Below are positions 25,585 to 40,570 of a stretch of 64,000 nucleotides of DNA, piece after piece; position 1 is the stretch's first letter; each line of letters starts with the position of its first letter. The translations under genes were made by a program, and so were the position numbers. Where the stretch lies: positions 32,001 to 96,000 of the forward strand of contig CAWVRN010000002.1 of the NCBI GenBank assembly GCA_963932905.1, in the 5' to 3' direction. Below the pieces are notes generated by a model that saw only the letters and a list, made by a program, of their open reading frames with translations, was not told the origin of the DNA and made no database searches. Source of the DNA: an uncultured Bdellovibrio sp. Its GTDB lineage: Bacteria > Bdellovibrionota > Bdellovibrionia > Bdellovibrionales > Bdellovibrionaceae.

Positions 25585-25633
25585 AGGCTTGTAGGGTATC
25601 ATAAGTAGCCGGCATCATTCAACTTATAGGAGG

Positions 25634-26407
25634 CTAGGGCTGGGTCTGACCGGACGCACAACATTTGTAGTATAGCTCGATATTGCCCTGAGAGAGACTG
25701 TCATAAAAAACACTCTGACTTGTGTATTGAGTTTTTGCTACATGGGCTTGCTCCGACATAGAGGGGCTTAAAATCACTTTACGAGACGGATGAACAGTTA
25801 CCGGCAAGACTAGATCAGAATATTCCGTTAGCTTTTGCGTGAGCAGTTGGTAGGTCCAATGGGATAGATATGTTTTTACATATTTAGCATTAAAGAAATC
25901 CTGTATAAATAGTGTTTTCTGACTGTCAGAGTAAGATCCGATTCTGATTTCCGTTTGGTTCAAAACGGTTTTGTAAGGCGAATCCTCATAGAACTCTAGA
26001 TCGAAGTCAGAAAATGTCTTAATAGCTGCCTCGAAGGTGATCAAATGATCGATATGCCAACCAATGCCCAAAGGAGAATAGATCTTTACTGCCTTAGGGA
26101 TTTCATTTTTTAGACGTCTTAGTTCGTCGATCAGTTGCTTGATAGTTTGAGCTTCTTCGGAAATATTTTGAAACAAAACATCTGAACTGCCTCTACGAAT
26201 TGGTGCGTCTTCAAATCCGAGAAGTCGCTGAGTACACCCTAAAATTCGAGTCGCTTTGAAATCTTCGTTGATTCTGTCGCGATTGCCCTCAGAAAAAACA
26301 GTGACGATTTCGACATCATCCCCTTGATCCACGCACTGTTGAATCCGACCCGCGCAGGAAAAAATAGCATCATCTAAATGTGGTGATAAGAAAACTACTC
26401 GTCCCAT
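25634..26407 (-). CDS. PIG-L/LmbE-family N-deacetylase
   Basis: SPHLDD, HIDH, YEDSPY, YTSQ motifs. Confidence 0.85.
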   Translation of the reverse strand: MGRVVFLSPHLDDAIFSCAGRIQQCVDQGDDVEIVTVFSEGNRDRINEDFKATRILGCTQRLLGFEDAPIRRGSSDVLFQNISEEAQTIKQLIDELRRLKNEIPKAVKIYSPLGIGWHIDHLITFEAAIKTFSDFDLEFYEDSPYKTVLNQTEIRIGSYSDSQKTLFIQDFFNAKYVKTYLSHWTYQLLTQKLTEYSDLVLPVTVHPSRKVILSPSMSEQAHVAKTQYTSQSVFYDSLSQGNIELYYKCCASGQTQP

Positions 26408-27135
26408 AGTGCCGCTCCGACACCGTAGCCAAGTGTCACAATAAGACTTTTACCGGGAACAAGGTGATTCTGTTCGTAGATTTGCCTGGCTGTTAAAACA
26501 GCATCATTCATAAATTCTATGTCCGCGTTGGTAATTCCGGCAAAAAGATTTTTTAGATTGCCCTCTAAACCCTCATAGGTCGATGGTTCGGCGTTTAGCT
26601 GATGATCCATTTTTAAAGGCAGTGCTAGGCCAATTTTTTTAGGTGAGGACTGGCCCAGTAGTTTTGAAAATTGGTTTCTAATTTTGATTTTACTGTCTGT
26701 ATTTGAAATATTTTGCGGAGATGTCGAACACCTGATTGGAAATTGATTTAGGTCTCTTTGCCATACCTGTTTTCCTTTAGGTGTATAGCATTTAATAGTT
26801 GTTTGACCCCAATCAATAGTGACATCGTAGGCATAAAGGCAAGTAAGGTCTTCGATTAACTTGATATCAAAGGGCAGATCTGTGTTTGCCAACTTTTTGA
26901 AAATCAATTGCGCTTTGCCACCGGCCAAGTAAAGGGTTTTAAAATTCTTTGCGTGAACTAAAGCGCTCTGGTCGGATTCATACAGTACAGTTGCAGTTCC
27001 GCGATACAATTTGCTTAAAAACTCAAACAACGCCAAATCTAAATAGTCTTCGGCCACCTTGAACAATGATCCCTGTGAGGTTTGACCATGCCAAATTTCA
27101 AGAGGTCGCAATTTTGGATGCTCATAGAGCCTCAT
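26395..27135 (-). CDS. ROK-family sugar-kinase-like protein, apparently circularly permuted
   Basis: IDWGQTTIK, IGLALP, MNDA and VTLGYGVGAA lie in the C-terminal half; LEIWH and LYLAGG lie in the N-terminal half; ATG overlaps the TGA of the upstream gene. Confidence 0.6.
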   Translation of the reverse strand: MRLYEHPKLRPLEIWHGQTSQGSLFKVAEDYLDLALFEFLSKLYRGTATVLYESDQSALVHAKNFKTLYLAGGKAQLIFKKLANTDLPFDIKLIEDLTCLYAYDVTIDWGQTTIKCYTPKGKQVWQRDLNQFPIRCSTSPQNISNTDSKIKIRNQFSKLLGQSSPKKIGLALPLKMDHQLNAEPSTYEGLEGNLKNLFAGITNADIEFMNDAVLTARQIYEQNHLVPGKSLIVTLGYGVGAALWDE

Positions 27136-28082
27136 GTTAAATCCTTGGTTTCTACCACTGGCTTCCAAGTGGGGCAGTACTGTTTTGATAAATATCTGTA
27201 GTAAAATTTTTCCAATTCATAGCCTGCTTTGCAAAGATACAGACCTATTAGAAATAACATGTAGTAGCTGATTTCAGAAATAGGACGATTGAGAATTAGT
27301 TTTTTCTGTAATCGGCGCCTTCCGAAATTTTGATGCGTTTTAACCGTTTCAGGAAAAAAATAATTTAAACGTTCAATTTCCAATTTCATTCTTTGGTACT
27401 TTCTATACATTCCCTGCAATGTTTCAGGTGGGCGATACCATATTGCAGTTTGAGTGCAGAAAATACTTTCTGGTCCGTAGCGTTTTAACAAATCACGTGA
27501 AATAAAAATATCGTCACAGCGTATTCCGGCTTCTAAATTAAGAAAATTGTCATTGTCTTCGGCGTTCCAAATCAAAGATGTCTTTTCGGGAATGGACCAA
27601 TTGCGAATGGCAAACAGCTGACCATTAAGATACTGCCGACGGTTTTGATAACCATTGTTTAAATTGTAAAGATAAAGTGCGCGAGCCAGAGGTGATTTGC
27701 GCTTTGGTTGCAAAGGGTATTTTTCCGAGTAGGCCACTTGCAAATTATTATTTTCTATCATGCTTTTGCAGATTTCAGTAATGCAATCTTTTTCAATGAT
27801 TAAATCAGCATCGCTAAAAATCAAAAATGAAGCCTCCGGTTTCATTTTTTTTAAAAAACGTTGAGCTTCAACCAGTCCACCAGTGGTATGCCACACATTG
27901 ATAAACGGAACTGTATTTAGAAAAACTTCAGAGTCATCGGAATTATCATTCAGTAATGCATGAACTTCAAATTGAATTCCTAGTTGAGTTGTTGCAAAGT
28001 CGACCGATTCTTTTAAACTGGCAATTAAAACCGGTAGGTTTTTGGATTCATTCTTGGCTGTGATTCCAATTGGAATGATCAT
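27132..28082 (-). CDS. GT-A fold glycosyltransferase (GT2-like)
   Basis: IGITAKNE, DNSDDS, FSDAD (DxD), NGQLFAIR, CDD. Confidence 0.75.
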   Translation of the reverse strand: MIIPIGITAKNESKNLPVLIASLKESVDFATTQLGIQFEVHALLNDNSDDSEVFLNTVPFINVWHTTGGLVEAQRFLKKMKPEASFLIFSDADLIIEKDCITEICKSMIENNNLQVAYSEKYPLQPKRKSPLARALYLYNLNNGYQNRRQYLNGQLFAIRNWSIPEKTSLIWNAEDNDNFLNLEAGIRCDDIFISRDLLKRYGPESIFCTQTAIWYRPPETLQGMYRKYQRMKLEIERLNYFFPETVKTHQNFGRRRLQKKLILNRPISEISYYMLFLIGLYLCKAGYELEKFYYRYLSKQYCPTWKPVVETKDLT

Positions 28083-29239
28083 ATTAATGCCTCGATCAGT
28101 TCGGCACTTTTTCGTGAGCCGTCTATTTGATAGCTTCGTGCTACGCGGTTGATATTTGTTTCAATTTCACGGCTGTTTAATATCTGTTTGATTCTTTCTT
28201 TAATTTGGATGGTGCTAAGTTTTCTGATATCCTCGACCAAGCCAATTCCTGATTTATTTACATAGTGACCTTGATGAAATTGATCATTGCACATAGGAGT
28301 TACCCATAGTTTTGTTTGGAAATAAATTGATTCCATAACCGAGTTGGCGCCTCCGTGGGTGATAAACAATGTGCTTTTAGGCAAAATTTCTAGTTGAGGA
28401 GCGTACCTATAGAGCGTGACATGATCAGGCTTTTGCAGTTTTTCTATTAAGTCACCCACCGAAAGAATCAAACGCCAATTCTCGCCTTGAGTTGCCGTCA
28501 TTAGTTTTTCAAAAATTTCTGGCCAGTAAAAAATCTGACTTCCAAAAGAGGCGTATATGGTTAGTTCTTCATTGTTTTCTATGACGACCGTTTCATCTCC
28601 TCGGTTTTTTATTGGTAACGAGGGACCCACCATATGAACGTCGCTTCCTCTTTCACCAACAAACTCTGGCGTACAAAAGGCAATCGTTAAATATTTTGAC
28701 AGAGCATCACAGCCTTTAAAATCAACTTTCACATCAAAAGTTTGAAAGAGTTTGTCTCGTTGGATTCTTATTTCCTGTAAGGTGTCGAGTAAATCACTTG
28801 TTACATCACCTTCTAGGACTGGATTTAAAGAGTTAGACATCGAAACCCATGGAATACCACTTAACTCGGCGGCGATCACAGACGTGTAAGCCAACGGGTC
28901 AATGACCAAAACATCTGGCCTGACTAATTTTAGCCAGTCCAATTGTCTGGTCACGTCTTCTTTGGAAACATTCAAAAGTAAGCTCTGTATCCACTTTTTC
29001 ATGGCAATTTTGTTGTTTACTAAATCGACCAGCTCTTTACCTCTCATGGGTTGTTCTGGTGCTTTTTTAGATACTAAAGAGAGATCAAATTCCAAACCTG
29101 CTTTTTCAATTTGTTCAGAAATATTCCCGATAGATGCAAACGAAACTCTATTTCCATTTTTTTGTAGAGCTTGCGCGGGGCCAATGTAAGGATTGATGTG
29201 CCCCTTTTCAGGAAGCACTAAAAAAATTATTTTTTTCAT
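28079..29239 (-). CDS. GT1/MGT-family small-molecule glycosyltransferase
   Basis: GHINP, APQLEIL, FITHGGANSVME, NDQ (PSPG-like box). Confidence 0.9.
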   Translation of the reverse strand: MKKIIFLVLPEKGHINPYIGPAQALQKNGNRVSFASIGNISEQIEKAGLEFDLSLVSKKAPEQPMRGKELVDLVNNKIAMKKWIQSLLLNVSKEDVTRQLDWLKLVRPDVLVIDPLAYTSVIAAELSGIPWVSMSNSLNPVLEGDVTSDLLDTLQEIRIQRDKLFQTFDVKVDFKGCDALSKYLTIAFCTPEFVGERGSDVHMVGPSLPIKNRGDETVVIENNEELTIYASFGSQIFYWPEIFEKLMTATQGENWRLILSVGDLIEKLQKPDHVTLYRYAPQLEILPKSTLFITHGGANSVMESIYFQTKLWVTPMCNDQFHQGHYVNKSGIGLVEDIRKLSTIQIKERIKQILNSREIETNINRVARSYQIDGSRKSAELIEALI

Positions 29240-30960
29240 AAAAAACGTCTCCTCCAGATAAGGGTTGCCAGAAGTCTAAATTCAAGTCCCACGTCGTAAT
29301 CAGAAAGGTTCTCACTGGTTCGTTTAGTCCAACTCGTAACGGTGTCGGGGTCGACAATGTCGGTTAGGGTTTCGCCATATTTTTTCCAGTATTCGACAAA
29401 ATAGCGATGAATAGTCGCCTGGGCTTTCAAATTTTTTGTCAGTGCAGATTTAGGTCGTTGAGCCAGTTCGGGGCTGACCGCGGTCGAAGCGACTTGGCGT
29501 AAATGGAATTTTTCGGGCCCTTCGATAGGTTTAAGTAGTTGAGCTGCGTGTAAAACATTGATGTCAGCAAATGGAACTCGGGCTTCCAGTGAATGGGCCA
29601 TTGTGTGAGTGTCGCCGTTATGTAGGAGTCGGCGTAGCCAGAAATCAACGATAATTTTAGACATCGCAAATCGCTGATCGGGTAGGGTTTTCCAATTGTA
29701 GCCACTTTCAATCGAATAAGATCTATAAAAATCACTAAAATCCGCCACAGCATTAACTTTTCGCAGAGGAACATGTCCAAAAAACTGAATCACATTTTGC
29801 ACTGACGCCACCATGTTTTTGCCCAGCAAAAATGGATATCCAAAGTGGGTTTCGTCAGCGGCGTCACCGACTAAGACGGCCTTCACATGTTGGGCTGCCG
29901 CGAGTGCAAGTGCGTGCTGCGAAACTTCTTGTTCCCAGGCAGAGATCAAATCGTTTTTTTCGAGAGTTTTTATAAGCAATTCAGGATAGTCGGTTGCTGT
30001 TACTTTCACGTCATGTAATTCGTGTCCTAATTGCTGACTGGCGCTGACTGCAAAATCATAGTCTTCACTTTTAACTATCAATGCTTTTTTATAGTCCTCT
30101 TCTTTATTGTCTTCATATCTTATCGTCCACGTTTTTAGTTTTTTGTCCGACAAACTGGCGATGAGTGTAGAGTCCAATCCTCCTGATAGGAAAAGTCCGA
30201 CCTCGCTATCGGCATGAAGTGTTTTATTTACAGCATCCTTCAGTAACGTTTTCCAGTCAGAGGCGTCCACTGAATCAGATGGATTGAAGTGATAGGAAAA
30301 ATATTTTTCAATTGATAGAGATCCATTTGAAACAGTCAGTGTGTGCCCAGGCAGAAGTACTTCCACGTTTTTGAATGGAGTTGATACCGATCCCGTAAAA
30401 TACGGAGCTATCAGATATTCGCAAAGATAGTCTTCATTAATTTTGAATTCCATCAGTTTACTTTGGACCAATACCGAGGCTTCGGAGGCACAAGTAAATA
30501 GTGTTTTATTGGAATAGTAGAAAAATGGTTTTACGCCTAACGGGTCACGTGCCGCAAAACCGCGTTCATTTTTATTATCCCAAATAAAGAAGGAAAACAT
30601 TCCATTGAATTTTTTAACACAATCTGGTCCCCATTTTTCATAGGCAGCCAGGACTACTTCAGAATCTGATCGCGTTTTAAAATCATAAGAGGCTTCTAGT
30701 TCTTTTCTTAATTCTTGGTAGTTGTAAATTTCGCCATTATAAATCAGTGTCAGTTGTCCGTTGTGATTCTGCGTAGGCAAGCTAAGATTTCTTAGATCGA
30801 GCATAGATAATCGGTTCTGACCCAAAACACAATGATCAAAAACTTTATGTCCGCTGCCGTCCGGACCGCGGTGTAATTGCATCCGTAGCATGTTTTCGAC
30901 GATATGTTTATCGTTAGGCAACAATCCTTTTTTTCTTACGATGGCTGCTATGGCGCACAT
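29236..30960 (-). CDS. asnB: Asparagine synthase (glutamine-hydrolysing)-family amidotransferase
   Basis: N-terminal MC (Ntn Cys), HRGPD, NGEIYN, RDPLGVKP, LSGGLDS, GDAADE, EARVPF. Confidence 0.9.
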   Translation of the reverse strand: MCAIAAIVRKKGLLPNDKHIVENMLRMQLHRGPDGSGHKVFDHCVLGQNRLSMLDLRNLSLPTQNHNGQLTLIYNGEIYNYQELRKELEASYDFKTRSDSEVVLAAYEKWGPDCVKKFNGMFSFFIWDNKNERGFAARDPLGVKPFFYYSNKTLFTCASEASVLVQSKLMEFKINEDYLCEYLIAPYFTGSVSTPFKNVEVLLPGHTLTVSNGSLSIEKYFSYHFNPSDSVDASDWKTLLKDAVNKTLHADSEVGLFLSGGLDSTLIASLSDKKLKTWTIRYEDNKEEDYKKALIVKSEDYDFAVSASQQLGHELHDVKVTATDYPELLIKTLEKNDLISAWEQEVSQHALALAAAQHVKAVLVGDAADETHFGYPFLLGKNMVASVQNVIQFFGHVPLRKVNAVADFSDFYRSYSIESGYNWKTLPDQRFAMSKIIVDFWLRRLLHNGDTHTMAHSLEARVPFADINVLHAAQLLKPIEGPEKFHLRQVASTAVSPELAQRPKSALTKNLKAQATIHRYFVEYWKKYGETLTDIVDPDTVTSWTKRTSENLSDYDVGLEFRLLATLIWRRRFL

Positions 30961-31847
30961 AACGACCTCCGTAGTATATCCAAGCTTTGATTGTAGGAAT
31001 CAAAACCAAAGCGTTTATCGGGAAAATAGCTTGGTTTTTTCTTTTCAGAACCGATCTGCCATTTCAGGTGTGCCCAATTCCTCAGTGGCTCTTTGTTTAA
31101 AAACGGGCCGTTCTCATTCGCCCAAAGCAAAAGTGGCCAATTCGCCAGCGGCGTAATTAACTCAACATTGAAGTGTTCAAAACATTGCTTTGTCAGAAAA
31201 AACAAGTCGCAAAATTCTGATCCAGCAAATGATTGATCTGCCCCGTCTCCGGAATATATTTGAGTCACTCCAAGTTTAGAAATTTCACGAGCGAGTATCC
31301 ATTTTGATACTGGGTGGAGATTATAAATTGGACATTCTACTTTTTCTAAAAAACTCGGAAGCGATTGAATGAATTCTAGATAGTCAGTTTCTATTTGAAT
31401 ATATTCGATAGAATGGTAGTTGCAGAATTTTTGAACCTGCTGCGATTCACAGTATCCATCAATGTTAGTTTGCAAATAATAGGCGTTAACATGAAATCCT
31501 TTATCTCGTGCGTAAAGAGCTAATACCTGTGAATCTAAGCCACCACTGATGGCTAAATTGATCGAATGGCAAGTCATCCTATTAAAATGTAAATCGAGCA
31601 AGTTTAAAAAACTTGAGCTGATGTGTGGGTGGGGCCAAGTGATATTAGATATTTTTTCTATGCCTTGAACGGGGGTCATTGGCCAAGTGTCTTTTCCTTG
31701 CCTATAAAGGGAAATGAAATCGAAATTCCACTGCCAAGTCGGTTTTTCTCTGATCAACGTTTTCAGCGACGAGCTTGTTTGCAGATTGCTTTTGTCCTGA
31801 TAGATAAAATCAGTTTTAAAAAGTCCGAAGTTTAAATTTGACTGCAT
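30948..31847 (-). CDS. Asparagine-synthase C-terminal-domain ATP-dependent ligase lacking a glutaminase domain
   Basis: ISGGLDS PP-loop, SGDGAD, KEPLR; no N-terminal Cys; ATG 31847 overlaps the end of the radical SAM gene. Confidence 0.75.
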   Translation of the reverse strand: MQSNLNFGLFKTDFIYQDKSNLQTSSSLKTLIREKPTWQWNFDFISLYRQGKDTWPMTPVQGIEKISNITWPHPHISSSFLNLLDLHFNRMTCHSINLAISGGLDSQVLALYARDKGFHVNAYYLQTNIDGYCESQQVQKFCNYHSIEYIQIETDYLEFIQSLPSFLEKVECPIYNLHPVSKWILAREISKLGVTQIYSGDGADQSFAGSEFCDLFFLTKQCFEHFNVELITPLANWPLLLWANENGPFLNKEPLRNWAHLKWQIGSEKKKPSYFPDKRFGFDSYNQSLDILRRSLCAP

Positions 31848-32653
31848 ATATTTAATATCGTTTCTCTTTGAGATTTGATTTCTTGTGGTGACATCTGTTG
31901 CTGCGTACTGAGTGTAGATTGACCCCCTTTGCACAGATAGCACGAATTTATTGGCTCGCTGGATTCCAGATGTTGCTTAATTAAAATAGCTAGCGCACTT
32001 TCGTTATGTGCATGCAGATCAATCCCGTCCTCTTTGAACGTTTGAGGATTCGCAGCCATACGCTGGATATACTGTGGTCGTGTGCAACTATAGAATCTGC
32101 CGTCTTTCACGCTGTTGCATCGGTGGTGGATCCAACACCCTTGAAAAGTTTTTTTTGCTTCTTCGTAAGTGGCTTTTTCTGAGCGATTTAAATTTACAAA
32201 TTTATCTTGTGTTTTCCAGCTCACTGAAATTCCGTGGTCGGTTGCTTTTTGGCGAATCCATTTTAGTAAATCTTTTGATAGTGGCGGAGATGGGTAAATT
32301 GAAACTGTTAGCATTTCAAATTCGTTCCAGGCCTCGTCAGCGAGTTTAGTCAGGAGGTGGCCGTTGGTTGTAACGCTAATTTTTTTCGAAATTCCAGTTT
32401 TTTTTGCAATTTTTAGAAGTCGCGGCAGCTCTGGATGCAAAAGCGGTTCTCCGCCAACAATTTTTAAAAATGAAGGCTCAACTACTTTTCCCACTTGAAT
32501 TAAGTCTTTTTCGAATTGGTCTGGATCGACTTGCCAAAACTTTAACATTGGGGAAAAGGAGCAACACTGGGCACATCTTAAATTGCAGTGGTCCACAATG
32601 TGATATTCAAGAGCACGAGTCTGAACACGTCCATTTACTATTTTATAATCCAT
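31832..32653 (-). CDS. Radical SAM enzyme with C-terminal Cys cluster (Twitch/SPASM-like)
   Basis: CNLRCAQC, GGEPLLHP, TTNG; C-terminal CWIHHRC..YSC..CYLC. Confidence 0.9.
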   Translation of the reverse strand: MDYKIVNGRVQTRALEYHIVDHCNLRCAQCCSFSPMLKFWQVDPDQFEKDLIQVGKVVEPSFLKIVGGEPLLHPELPRLLKIAKKTGISKKISVTTNGHLLTKLADEAWNEFEMLTVSIYPSPPLSKDLLKWIRQKATDHGISVSWKTQDKFVNLNRSEKATYEEAKKTFQGCWIHHRCNSVKDGRFYSCTRPQYIQRMAANPQTFKEDGIDLHAHNESALAILIKQHLESSEPINSCYLCKGGQSTLSTQQQMSPQEIKSQRETILNICSQI

Positions 32654-33395
32654 AATAGGCTCCTTCAATTTCAATCAGTAAATCTGAACGGCAAATTTCT
32701 GCAGAAACAAACTCGATAGATTTTCCTAGTTTTTCTTCTAAATCCGATTTTATTTTCGTTTCGATAGCTGGGTCCCGCATGTAAACTCGCCATGACATTT
32801 GGTTTTTTAAAATAGGTTTTTTAAGTGTTTGTTGAGCCTTGTTTATAACTTCATCAATATTTTCGATAGTGCATTTAATTTGTCCATCTAGGTCACCCAG
32901 AAACATTGTTTTATGGCCGCGAATACTAGCAGTGCCTGAAAGAAAAAACATGGAATCAATTACAGCGGCACGTGCAAAGGAAGGCGACGTGGGACCGTAT
33001 TCATTCGGGTAATCGTAGGCTTCGATCTGTAGACGATTGGAAATGGGCATTGGTTTGGTTTTACCAAAGAGAAACCGAAACTGAATTGATGAGCCTTGGC
33101 TTCCTACCGCACTGGCGGCTGGAAAGGAATTTTGGTCTATATTCAGTCGGTTGTAGGCGTTTTTTCTACCAGCGCAGAAGTGTTGGTAGTTCTCAATTCC
33201 CTCAGTGAACCGATTGATTTCTGGAATATAGTTCCAGATTCTTATTATTTCTGAAAAACCCATGCTCAAAGCGCTGCGCCAAGCTTCCAGGTACACGGAT
33301 TCAGTAACGTCTTGAATTTTAGAGGATTCGATAGATTTTGAAAAGTTAATTTCAAGTCCAAATTTAGTAGTGCGAGTGTTTAGAGTTTGTTCCAT
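32643..33395 (-). CDS. Chorismatase, FkbO/Hyg5/XanB2 family
   Basis: RIWNY, YQHFCAGR, PAASAVG, YDYPNEYGPTSPSFARA, SGTASI, ICRSDLLIEIEG. Confidence 0.85.
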   Translation of the reverse strand: MEQTLNTRTTKFGLEINFSKSIESSKIQDVTESVYLEAWRSALSMGFSEIIRIWNYIPEINRFTEGIENYQHFCAGRKNAYNRLNIDQNSFPAASAVGSQGSSIQFRFLFGKTKPMPISNRLQIEAYDYPNEYGPTSPSFARAAVIDSMFFLSGTASIRGHKTMFLGDLDGQIKCTIENIDEVINKAQQTLKKPILKNQMSWRVYMRDPAIETKIKSDLEEKLGKSIEFVSAEICRSDLLIEIEGAYYGL

Positions 33396-34051
33396 TAAAT
33401 TCCCCTCTCGGTCAATGCATACATATAGGGTGAACGGTAAGCTACATCGGTAAGTTTAATTTTTGTTTTTTTAATAAGTCCACTTGAGATAATATATTTT
33501 CTAAAATTTCTTTTATCGATCGAAGTATTCAGAATGCCTTCATACAGTTGCTGAACCTGAGTGAGAGTAAAGTTTTCAGGCAAAACCTTCAGTGCAATAT
33601 TATTTTTGTATAAGTTTTCGATTAACCATTTCCGAGAAAATTCTACGATGTCGACGTGATCAAAAGCCAGATCCAATTTTTTTTGGTGTAAAGAGATCCA
33701 CTTGGCTTCTTTCGCATCTGTTCCCGCAGATAGTTTGAAATCGGTGGATTTAACCATTGCAAAAAACGCGACAGTTATTACTCGTTCTCGCGGATCACGA
33801 TCGATGGCGCTAAATGCCTTTAGCTGGGTCAGGTGAGATGTTCTTAAAGATGTCTCTTCAAAAAGTTCGCGTTCCGCAGCTTCTTCTAATGTTTCATTGT
33901 TTCGAACAAATCCACCTGGCAGCGCCCAGCGATTCCGATAGGGAGCGATACCTCGTTTAACAACTAAAACAGAAGGAGCATTGTTCGCGATACCAAAAAC
34001 AACTATGTCGACAGTCAGGGCCGGTCGGTCATATTTGTAAGTAAATTCCAT
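33395..34051 (-). CDS. nrtR: NrtR-family Nudix/wHTH transcriptional repressor
   Basis: Nudix box in WALPGGFVRNNETLEEAAERELFEET, RDPRER, LAFDH, FTLTQVQQLYE, KRNFRK; GAGGTG RBS before ATG 34051. Confidence 0.9.
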   Translation of the reverse strand: MEFTYKYDRPALTVDIVVFGIANNAPSVLVVKRGIAPYRNRWALPGGFVRNNETLEEAAERELFEETSLRTSHLTQLKAFSAIDRDPRERVITVAFFAMVKSTDFKLSAGTDAKEAKWISLHQKKLDLAFDHVDIVEFSRKWLIENLYKNNIALKVLPENFTLTQVQQLYEGILNTSIDKRNFRKYIISSGLIKKTKIKLTDVAYRSPYMYALTERGI

Positions 34052-34068
34052 GAGCACCTCTATTACTG

Positions 34069-34093
34069 ACTTAGTGTATAACAAACACTAAGT
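34069..34093. promoter_or_regulatory. Putative NrtR operator
   Basis: Perfect palindrome ACTTAGTGT-ATAACAA-ACACTAAGT (GT-N7-AC core), 17 nt upstream of the nrtR start. Confidence 0.8.
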
Positions 34094-34220
34094 ATTTTCA
34101 ATGCCCAGTTTTTATCGGTACTAAGTGGTTGAAATAACTCAATGTAAAAATTTTCAGGTTGGCTTATTTTCAGGCATTTTTGTCTGCGTCCTTGAAAAAA
34201 CCGCCCATGAGACTGGGTGT

Positions 34221-39670: not shown

Positions 39671-39936
39671 TTTTATCAGAAGAACGCCAATCGCACTGGG
39701 CCCACTTGCTGACAGATAGTATCTGGAACGACGACATGGTGGATTACACCGACGAAGACCAAGCATTGCGTTTGGCTAAAGTCGCCATCAAGGAATTTGT
39801 AAATGAAGACAGCGCTATTGATAAACGTGCTCGGGAAAAAGTCGCGTCACTAAAACGCGGTGTTATTGAAGGTTCTCCTGAGTGGGATGTTATGTATAAG
39901 AAATATTACGAAGAGGAAAAAAAGAAAAATGGCTAA
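39667..39936 (+). CDS. DUF507-family protein
   Basis: GSPEWDVMYKKYYEEE C-terminal motif. Confidence 0.8.
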   Translation: MILSEERQSHWAHLLTDSIWNDDMVDYTDEDQALRLAKVAIKEFVNEDSAIDKRAREKVASLKRGVIEGSPEWDVMYKKYYEEEKKKNG

Positions 39937-40570
39937 GGCAAAAAAAACAGCTCCAAAGAAAACTCCAGCGAAAGCCAAAGCAACGGCAAAAGCTAAACCG
40001 GCGGTGAAAGCGAAGCCAAAGGCGGCGCAAACGAAGCAAGCGAAGCCAAAGGCGGCGCAAACGAAACCTGCGCCGAAATCGGCAGCAAAGAAAACGGCTA
40101 AGCCTGGAGCCAAGGCTAAGGTTTCGACTAAAGCCAAAACAACTACAAAAACTCCGGCTAAAAAAGCAATGCCAAAAAAAGCGGCGCCTAAAGCTCCCGC
40201 AAAACCAGCTGCGAAAACAACACTAGCTCGTGCAGCGACTACACCGACGGATAAAAAAACAGAAAGCTATTTCAAATCGTACTTAAAACCTTTGGATGAT
40301 CGTATCGTGGTGCTTGTTGGAGCTAACGAACGTGTAACTTCCGGGGGATTAATTATCCCGGACACGGTAACGGACGTATCTGGAAATTTTCAAGGAAAAG
40401 TCATGGCGATTGGTCGTGGTCATATGAATAAAAAAGGCCGCGTGCAACCGTTGGACGTTGCTCTAGGCGATAAGGTTGTATTCTCGCAATTTGCGGGAAG
40501 CCAAATTGATGTAGATGGAAACAATATCATGATCATTCGTGAATCTGACGTTCTAGGAATTGTAAAATAG
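39929..40570 (+). CDS. groES: Co-chaperonin GroES (orphan, GroES2-like) with long Lys/Ala/Pro-rich N-terminal extension
   Basis: LKPLDDRI, TSGGLIIPD, GDKVVF, RESDVLG; no groEL adjacent. Confidence 0.88.
   Translation: MAKAKKTAPKKTPAKAKATAKAKPAVKAKPKAAQTKQAKPKAAQTKPAPKSAAKKTAKPGAKAKVSTKAKTTTKTPAKKAMPKKAAPKAPAKPAAKTTLARAATTPTDKKTESYFKSYLKPLDDRIVVLVGANERVTSGGLIIPDTVTDVSGNFQGKVMAIGRGHMNKKGRVQPLDVALGDKVVFSQFAGSQIDVDGNNIMIIRESDVLGIVK
40008..40065 (+). repeat. In-frame 30-nt tandem duplication (AKPKAAQTK)
   Basis: AAGCGAAGCCAAAGGCGGCGCAAACGAA occurs twice with a 30-nt period. Confidence 0.85.

Follow-up and report, generated by a model that had tools for sequence, protein, structure and literature searches.

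A conserved, probably biosynthetic cassette, apparently under NrtR control, in an uncultured Bdellovibrio sp.

Layout of the cassette and its closest described systems

Repressors of the NrtR family combine a Nudix domain with a winged helix and act on a palindrome over the promoter whose consensus has a GT-N7-AC core, as set out in the available passages on NrtR regulons, SoNrtR and BtAraR (PMC2330246; PMC4666351). The targets named in the available text of PMC2330246 serve nicotinamide adenine dinucleotide (NAD) synthesis or salvage and pentose use, or are draG. The window studied here, the whole stretch of 64,000 nucleotides analysed from an uncultured Bdellovibrio sp. (contig CAWVRN010000002.1, positions 32,001 to 96,000), carries a cassette of nine minus-strand open reading frames (ORFs) at 25634–34084. 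Its domains and predicted site place the cassette within the NrtR regulon family; unlike the targets named above, its own would be eight biosynthetic enzymes. A sequence-only reading had described nine co-oriented overlapping genes, assigned a family to each, and noted the absence of genes for a nonribosomal peptide synthetase (NRPS), a polyketide synthase (PKS), a carrier protein or an exporter. The layout was confirmed: all eight junctions overlap, by 1, 11, 16, 13, 4, 4, 4 and 13 nt in gene order when the likely starts are used, including ATG 34051 for nrtR (ribosome-binding site AGAGGTG at 34061–34055), ATG 31847 for the truncated ligase and ATG 27135 for the kinase. Contigs of four DNA runs span the cassette, and no joint bypasses it. 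The family calls hold as well. Eight are backed by Pfam and NCBIfam (NUDIX with NrtR_WHD, FkbO_Hyg5-like_N, Radical_SAM, Asn_synthase alone, GATase with Asn_synthase, MGT-like GT1, GT2 and PIG-L), and the ROK-like gene, which has no Pfam match, is tied to ROK/hexokinase-type kinases by profile search and predicted fold (Table 1). The same Pfam and NCBIfam scans of the nine proteins returned no PKS, NRPS, carrier or exporter family, in agreement with the sequence-only reading.

Table 1. Features of the cassette and its insertion site, in window coordinates
Feature	Position	Strand	Remarks
Insert extent, variable-cargo site flanked by valS and a lipoprotein gene	25652..34140 (about)		includes operator
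NrtR-type operator (predicted), 9-nt arms, GT-N7-AC core	34069..34093		overlaps predicted -10 element
Sigma-70-like promoter (predicted; TTGAAA, 17 nt, TACACT)	34073..34101	-	9/12 matches
NrtR repressor, 218 aa	33395..34051	-	Arg88, D179-K-R-N-F-R-K185 recognition helix, near-intact Nudix box
FkbO/Hyg5/XanB2-family chorismatase, 250 aa	32643..33395	-	accessory
Twitch radical SAM enzyme, SpeY/HygY family, 273 aa	31832..32653	-	Cys179 at epimerase H-donor position
AsnC (our name), truncated AsnB-like PP-loop ATP pyrophosphatase, 299 aa	30948..31847	-	no glutaminase cysteine
AsnB-type glutamine amidotransferase, distinct subfamily, 574 aa	29236..30960	-	Cys2, SGGLDS, GDAADE
GT1 glycosyltransferase, YjiC/OleD/Kcn28-like, 386 aa	28079..29239	-	His14 and Asp114
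Soluble GT2 glycosyltransferase (GT-A fold), 316 aa	27132..28082	-	
ROK/hexokinase-type sugar kinase, 246 aa	26395..27135	-	apparently circularly permuted
PIG-L de-N-acetylase, 257 aa	25634..26407	-	nearest Dbv21/Orf2* glycopeptide deacetylases

Parts of this gene set recall several described systems. Homologous cassettes in other genomes share prs-nadV, pncA, pncB, nadM and draG as co-members with NrtR regulons. The radical S-adenosylmethionine (SAM) enzyme has the twitch family and fold of HygY (hygromycin B) and SpeY (spectinomycin; Protein Data Bank (PDB) entries 7WZV, 7WZX and 7X0B) and, like a HygY orthologue, a Cys at the catalytic position, whereas its identity is about 26% and other residues surround the substrate pocket. 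The apparent logic of glycosylation, deacetylation, epimerisation and phosphorylation resembles aminoglycoside tailoring. In contrast to aminocyclitol clusters, exemplified by the hygromycin-B-type cluster L190, the nine genes and the recurring neighbour families scanned include no cyclitol synthase or inositol dehydrogenase and no aminotransferase, and the cassette itself lacks an exporter. The pairing of a GT1 enzyme with a deacetylase predicted to act on an N-acetylglucosamine (GlcNAc) glycoside is shared with Dbv21/Orf2* and their GT1 partners, but the cassette has neither an NRPS aglycone nor an acyltransferase, and its acceptor must be a small primary metabolite. One cassette variant parallels Preiss-Handler NAD synthesis in its glycosyltransferase, kinase, amidotransferase and a transferase resembling nicotinamide mononucleotide (NMN) adenylyltransferase (NMNAT), although the core has no phosphoribosyltransferase and AsnB is not NadE. 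Unlike the NAD-derived SbzP/altemicidin clusters in the available part of PMC9516700, the nine genes encode no pyridoxal-phosphate-dependent SbzP-type enzyme. ARG-centred anti-ADP-ribosylation operons are likewise controlled by a Nudix repressor, variable, mobile and associated with draG, macro and NADAR, and some homologous cassettes lie inside such draG/macro/NADAR runs; the operons in the available text of PMC9503650, however, are made up of hydrolases, phosphatases and chaperones, with no biosynthetic module described there. Literature searches, whose coverage leaves out most subscription journals, found no description of the cassette, and the available part of PMC13707489 contains nothing specific to it. 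As far as these searches reach, the gene combination is undescribed, as had been supposed. The comparative evidence points to what is apparently a real, conserved and undescribed pathway, with good support for control by NrtR.

Operator, repressor and NAD/ADP-ribose neighbourhood

The palindromic operator expected ahead of the operon was found. Its 9-nt arms are 100% complementary across a 7-nt spacer, and it is the sole perfect copy in the 4.55-Mb genome. It overlaps a predicted promoter with its -35 element at 34101 and its -10 element ending at 34073, a kind of match that is not above chance (2 found against 1.4 in shuffled sequences). The repressor matches PF00293 and PF21906 above their cut-offs, and NF050029 at 149 bits, below the cut-off of 400. 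Its helix D179–K185 matches D178–K184 of BtAraR, whose helix residues read GTGT in the available text of PMC4666351. NrtR very probably binds the 25-bp site.

Homologous loci were drawn from an alignment of 43 AsnB-subfamily proteins chosen from the 120 matches listed. We took 80 of 105 confirmed genome loci, many of them cut by contig ends, and 79 of 86 confirmed metagenome loci; 157 were analysed, leaving out L096, which is identical to the window, and one locus without a profile match. An operator matrix built from nine sites in seven nrtR-bearing loci was run on 152 held-out loci (2.06 Mb). It scored at least 16 bits in nine of them, in eight within 150 nt of the first cassette-operon gene; the ninth, L058, is off target, and three of the eight (L038, L046 and L066) are close kin. 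A stricter test, confined to leaders, was passed by 5 of the 101 that precede cassettes and by 4 of the remaining 674, the latter four being misfiled cassette-operon leaders or a shared divergent leader. Some operator-bearing cassettes lack an adjacent nrtR. The genomes of L038, L039 and L061, which have the box and no nrtR in the locus, encode a full-length NrtR (47–49% identical); one of these genes extends the same gene run on another contig, and another heads an nrtR-tpt1-draG run with the same box. No such close NrtR was found in the box-less genomes of L016 and L056. Since operator matches and genomic NrtR genes are distributed in this way, comparative evidence makes control by NrtR real for a minority of lineages, whereas for most lineages no such control can be detected.

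Genes for NAD or ADP-ribose metabolism, or nrtR itself, lie within 10 kb of the cassette in 18 of the 157 loci. In L017, prs-nadV-nrtR precedes the other eight cassette genes, with the operator ahead of prs. The order is nrtR-NadM/Nudix-nadV-cassette in L077, and L051 also has NadM-Nudix-nadV. The most extended run, nrtR-sir2-NADAR-sir2-draG-draG-tpt1-macro-unknown-pncB-cassette-pncA, occurs in L081; in this locus and in L059, L067 and L085, pncB and pncA flank the cassette, accompanied by draG, tpt1, macro, sirtuin, NADAR or PARG genes. On an AsnB tree of 54 rows, picked to thin near-copies, the NAD link changes by at least 10 gains or losses; therefore it either dates from the common ancestor and was lost many times, or was gained repeatedly. 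At L074:666-2628, a draG-SPFH-unknown run stands ahead of the cassette. The Bdellovibrio genome itself encodes NadC, NadE and PncA, with nadE and pncA adjacent (G000:C10:46888-48547). The proposal of NrtR-type control over a conserved non-canonical operon thus draws support from the conserved operator and from the NAD-salvage and ADP-ribose-repair neighbours of the homologues.

All 11 of the cassette-linked NrtRs have Arg88. The equivalent residue is the ADP-ribose-binding Arg98 in SoNrtR and Gly in the arabinose-sensing AraR, according to the available part of PMC4666351. Tyr7 is likewise of the ADP-ribose type, while Ile35 and Glu66 match neither protein. Because Arg88 is invariant and the co-regulated genes handle NAD or ADP-ribose, the signal is probably ADP-ribose.

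Gene content, variants and insertion site

Conservation of the gene set in other genomes, whose absence would have counted against the sequence-only reading, was found. The 80 genome loci contain radical SAM in 65, AsnC in 64, GT1 in 67, GT2 in 48, ROK in 44, PIG-L in 38, chorismatase in 10 and nrtR in 7, and the core consists of seven genes (radical SAM, AsnC, AsnB, GT1, GT2, ROK-like kinase and PIG-L). This core or a variant occurs in eight phyla: Acidobacteriota, Myxococcota, Pseudomonadota, Verrucomicrobiota, Planctomycetota, Bdellovibrionota, Bacteroidota and Chlamydiota. The exact nine-gene combination with nrtR fared differently from the widespread core. It is rare, being present in two of the 80 genome loci (L017 and L051) and in metagenome locus L113, where nrtR is divergent. 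The nearest homologous cassette, L017, comes from a Bdellovibrio metagenome-assembled genome. Non-pathogenic carriers in culture are Chitinophaga costaii and Brevifollis gellanilyticus, both with the NrtR-linked form, as well as Nannocystis exedens and Trinickia soli. The radical SAM gene was detected in 39 of 95 Burkholderia and 5 of 301 Myxococcota genomes searched, and the AsnB subfamily in a single genome among 301 from the order that includes Chitinophaga.

Three layouts recur. Type I, that of the source genome, reads rSAM-AsnC-AsnB-GT1-GT2-ROK-PIG-L (rSAM, radical SAM). In type II (Trinickia, Luteibacter and Burkholderia), GT2, ROK and PIG-L give way to a pair of methyltransferases, a pair of APH-family kinases and a NodB deacetylase, and type III (Chitinophaga and others) reads APH kinase-NadM-like-AsnB-GT1-PIG-L-rSAM. 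Among the 157 loci, ROK kinases occur in 73 and APH kinases in 21, PIG-L in 56 and NodB in 11, and AsnC in 111 and the NMNAT-like protein (NadM-like) in 10, with both members of a pair in none. These mutually exclusive swaps, which represent few evolutionary events, indicate that the pathway retains a kinase, a deacetylase and an ATP-splitting adenylating enzyme. In the Burkholderia cepacia complex, type II clusters are split, with AsnB alone elsewhere in the genome (L188, L189, L041, L045, L047 and L050); both of the two Burkholderia genomes examined have a cluster without AsnB and AsnB at another site. In Acidobacteriota (L016:6752-8560 and related loci), an HpcH/HpaI aldolase gene lies ahead of the radical SAM gene in 15 loci, sometimes not adjacent; related loci sometimes have a 2-hydroxyacid dehydrogenase there, and a GNAT after the kinase where PIG-L is absent. 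These extra genes may supply a different acceptor.

The radical SAM enzyme matches SpeY over its whole length (E 8e-53, TM-score 0.87). A relationship to the antiviral enzyme viperin was considered and rejected, because viperin matches end near residue 125 and the SpeY match runs through the entire protein. Seven cysteines are invariant in 39 of 39 sequences, namely C23, C27 and C30 of the CxxxCxxC motif and the four auxiliary-cluster residues C173, C190, C238 and C241. Among 99 homologues, 98 have a Cys at position 179. The alignment pairs Cys179 with Cys183 of the HygY orthologue in L190; SpeY has a Ser in this column that we take to be Ser183, which holds only if the PDB chain has a 20-residue tag. 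HygY is a C2' epimerase by virtue of Cys183, and SpeY a dehydrogenase by virtue of Ser183. By analogy, the cassette enzyme likely keeps the epimerase cysteine, with Cys179 as the hydrogen donor. In Myxococcota, these enzymes have a conserved extension of about 130 residues without a Pfam match (L062:8601-9818; L063, L087 and L168), and three loci of this phylum encode two tandem paralogues. The chorismatase keeps the catalytic Glu244 together with Gly154 and Cys235, which belong to the Hyg5 signature; in L077, L089 and L092 it forms one fusion protein with the radical SAM enzyme. The signature of the 3-hydroxybenzoate-forming CH-Hyg5 comprises Gly240, Cys327 and a third Gly (Gly164 in Nat-hyg5), according to the available text of PMC7170507. 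The third position is Ala96, invariant in 11 of 11, in a column mapped by profile alignment to 5AG3. A glycosylated aromatic amide, which the sequence-only reading had offered as the product, is not a universal outcome, because the chorismatase is accessory, and it was not found in four of five cassette-bearing genomes searched whole.

AsnB retains the N-terminal nucleophile Cys2 and the PP-loop (TIGR01536, 337 bits against a cut-off of 267) and forms a distinct subfamily with a GDAADE motif, its closest solved relative being the hydroxyamidotransferase 7YLZ. AsnC keeps the PP-loop without the glutaminase cysteine. GT1 is closest to YjiC, Kcn28 and OleD, its top family being the macrolide-type TIGR01426 (127 bits, below the 260 cut-off); His14 and Asp114, presumably the O-glycosylation dyad, are invariant. 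The kinase contains DxGxT, NDA and TLGxGxG motifs and ends after the last of these, the GG motif coming earlier. Its residues 102–246 match the N-terminal half of ROK proteins in a predicted fold (Z 7.9, root-mean-square deviation 2.2, 128 aligned), and it is apparently a compact, circularly permuted ROK protein. A conserved N-terminal LE(I/L)W motif is also present. The closest solved relatives of the PIG-L protein are Dbv21/Orf2* (E 6e-32). In the variant cassettes, the NadM-like protein matches archaeal NMNAT (E 4e-37) and keeps the HxGH, TAGER and SGT motifs; PRK01153.1 scores are 115–133 bits with one of three above the cut-off of 127. No AsnC-length orthologue was found in five of five NadM-like-bearing genomes searched. 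The degenerate N-terminal half of these proteins resembles a duplicated NadM domain (L080:9075-9998, L077:9106-9993 and L089:9031-9996).

The cassette occupies a variable-cargo site. In four same-genus genomes compared, valS is present and the cassette absent; in three of them the lipoprotein gene still lies upstream of valS, the cargo in between measuring about 3 kb in one and about 2.5 kb in another and being absent from the third, and the neighbourhood of the fourth genome differs. The cargo (L192, L193 and L194), named from sequence motifs, is a LysR gene with a 611-residue radical-SAM-like gene in G006 and an HxlR/AhpD-like set in G008, and the site is empty in G004. Insertion into a defence island is not supported by such contents. 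The neighbouring GntP-type transporter and lipoprotein genes also occur in cassette-less relatives. Vertical inheritance in close kin was rejected: the radical SAM query gave weak superfamily matches and no orthologue in 60 relatives, and a profile search of 400 other genomes of the phylum gave a match in one (E 1e-40). The operon has probably been moved horizontally. Carriage by a plasmid or phage was also dismissed, as the one plasmid match is a hygromycin-B-type cluster and there was no phage match. On the other side, valS begins 31 nt past the end of the cassette and in the same orientation (25602–25634), which leaves no room for a terminator, and cassette induction may therefore read through into valS. 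Farther away, an ORF at 39860–40570 encodes a GroES-like protein with a long Lys/Ala/Pro-rich N-terminal extension.

Candidate product and its biological meaning

We favour, with a probability of about 0.4, a cytoplasmic pathway induced by ADP-ribose that would yield an amidated, C2-epimerised glycoside phosphate, likely resembling NMN, and would aid the cell while its NAD+ is under attack. Cleavage of NAD+ would raise ADP-ribose and cause NrtR to leave the operator. GT1 would then attach a gluco-type sugar, probably GlcNAc, to a small acceptor, which here is probably a hydroxybenzoate made by the chorismatase and elsewhere would come from primary metabolism. The Dbv21-like PIG-L enzyme would strip the N-acetyl group, and the HygY-like radical SAM enzyme would use Cys179 as hydrogen donor to invert one carbon of the sugar, by analogy C2'. 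AsnB would convert a carboxylate to a carboxamide with glutamine and ATP, the permuted ROK kinase would phosphorylate the sugar, and AsnC, through adenylation with ATP, would form a second amide bond or transfer AMP to the phosphate. The product would most likely inhibit or decoy NAD-consuming enzymes. It is probably intracellular, because none of the enzymes is membrane-bound (no hydrophobic segment over threshold in the eight) and a polytopic membrane protein occurs in only 4 of 66 cassette runs. That it is a soluble glycoside has slightly better than even odds, and an NMN-like glycoside phosphate is favoured because the NadM-bearing set parallels NAD assembly. A bolder version, in which bacteria sense NAD+ destruction through NrtR and make a natural NAD+ or NMN analogue (an amidated glycoside, epimerised by the radical SAM enzyme, phosphorylated and lastly adenylylated) that blocks or decoys the NADases and ADP-ribosyltransferases of phages and rivals, AsnC being an adenylyltransferase replaceable by the NMNAT-like protein, appears doubtful; a true dinucleotide analogue would be equally doubtful.

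Several observations weigh against an NMN-like product made in response to ADP-ribose. In the repressor, Ile35 and Glu66 replace the phosphate-binding Asn43 and Lys76 of SoNrtR, and AraR, which senses arabinose and is the nearest relative with a solved structure, matches the protein better (E 7e-37) than SoNrtR does (E 7e-22). Neither the operator nor NAD genes are seen at most homologous loci (Acidobacteriota, Burkholderiales and most Myxococcota). NAMPT and NAPRT were not found in the Bdellovibrio genome (98.6% complete), and the operator here therefore controls no salvage gene. The tryptophan of the archaeal NMNAT pocket stacks on nicotinamide, and an invariant Asn replaces it in the NadM-like protein; the exchange of NadM for AsnC is confined to one clade and therefore counts as one event. 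PADLOC gave short superfamily-level matches only (the N-terminal half of viperin, QueC and Nudix), with no model match beyond that level.

A pair of glycosyltransferases together with a deacetylase and a sugar kinase would also suit the building or tailoring of a nucleotide sugar or short glycan for a surface or cytoplasmic glycoconjugate, through amidation of a uronic acid by AsnB, nucleoside diphosphate (NDP)-sugar synthesis by kinase and nucleotidyltransferase and carbon inversion by the radical SAM enzyme. In the variants, the APH kinase and the HIGH-type transferase could form an NDP-sugar salvage pair, for which AmgK and MurU are an analogous kinase and nucleotidyltransferase. We consider this rather unlikely, in that the recurring neighbour families scanned include no flippase, polymerase, initiating transferase or NDP-sugar dehydratase, membrane anchors are absent, GT1 is nearest to small-molecule glucosyltransferases, and the operator and the placement between pncB and pncA are left unexplained. 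That placement is the strength of another proposal, in which the cassette makes no molecule de novo and instead processes ADP-ribose or damaged NAD, or repairs a modified RNA or protein end, within an ADP-ribose clean-up operon. The Verrucomicrobiota cassettes are embedded among draG, tpt1, macro, NADAR, PARG, sirtuin, pncA and pncB genes, no scaffold-forming enzyme is common to all versions, and Nudix-repressor-controlled operons that reverse ADP-ribosylation have been predicted in the available text of PMC9503650. Glycosyltransferases, an amidotransferase and a chorismatase are, however, constructive enzymes, the section with that prediction mentions none of these families, and a term search of the paper returned no passage on radical SAM enzymes, amidotransferases, glycosyltransferases or chorismate, so that this proposal seems unlikely.

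The residues kept by the chorismatase, its fusion to the radical SAM enzyme in three loci and an AsnC that lacks the glutaminase, as amide-forming ligases do, would fit a product that in every member is either a glycosylated hydroxybenzamide or a hydroxybenzoyl amino sugar, AsnC joining the aromatic acid to the deacetylated sugar amine. The presence of the chorismatase in 10 of 80 loci and the failure to find it in four of five whole genomes make such a general product improbable; moreover, Ala96 stands where Hyg5-type enzymes have Gly, and a chorismatase product is not accurately predictable from an alignment, according to the available part of PMC3949708. Least compatible with the data is a detoxifying role, in which glycosylation, phosphorylation, methylation and amidation would inactivate antibiotics or phenolics that enter the cell. 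The macrolide-type glycosyltransferases that give GT1 its best score and the variants with APH-family kinases, GNATs and a CmcI-type methyltransferase are in line with it, but a fixed multi-step order, a radical epimerase and a dedicated chorismatase are unlike known inactivation enzymes, and it gives no reason for control by ADP-ribose; we regard it as very unlikely.

NAD+ cleavage and ADP-ribosylation are central weapons in phage–host and interbacterial conflict, and the known answers are to rebuild NAD+ or to remove ADP-ribose. If the favoured pathway to an NMN-like glycoside phosphate is real, small-molecule synthesis within this regulon would add a third type of response, from which a natural inhibitor of NAD-consuming enzymes might be obtained. 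Even otherwise, the cassette would add a non-antibiotic member to the HygY/SpeY radical epimerase family and an apparently permuted ROK kinase, in a pathway that was detected in 39 of 95 Burkholderia species genomes searched and carries no more than generic annotations.

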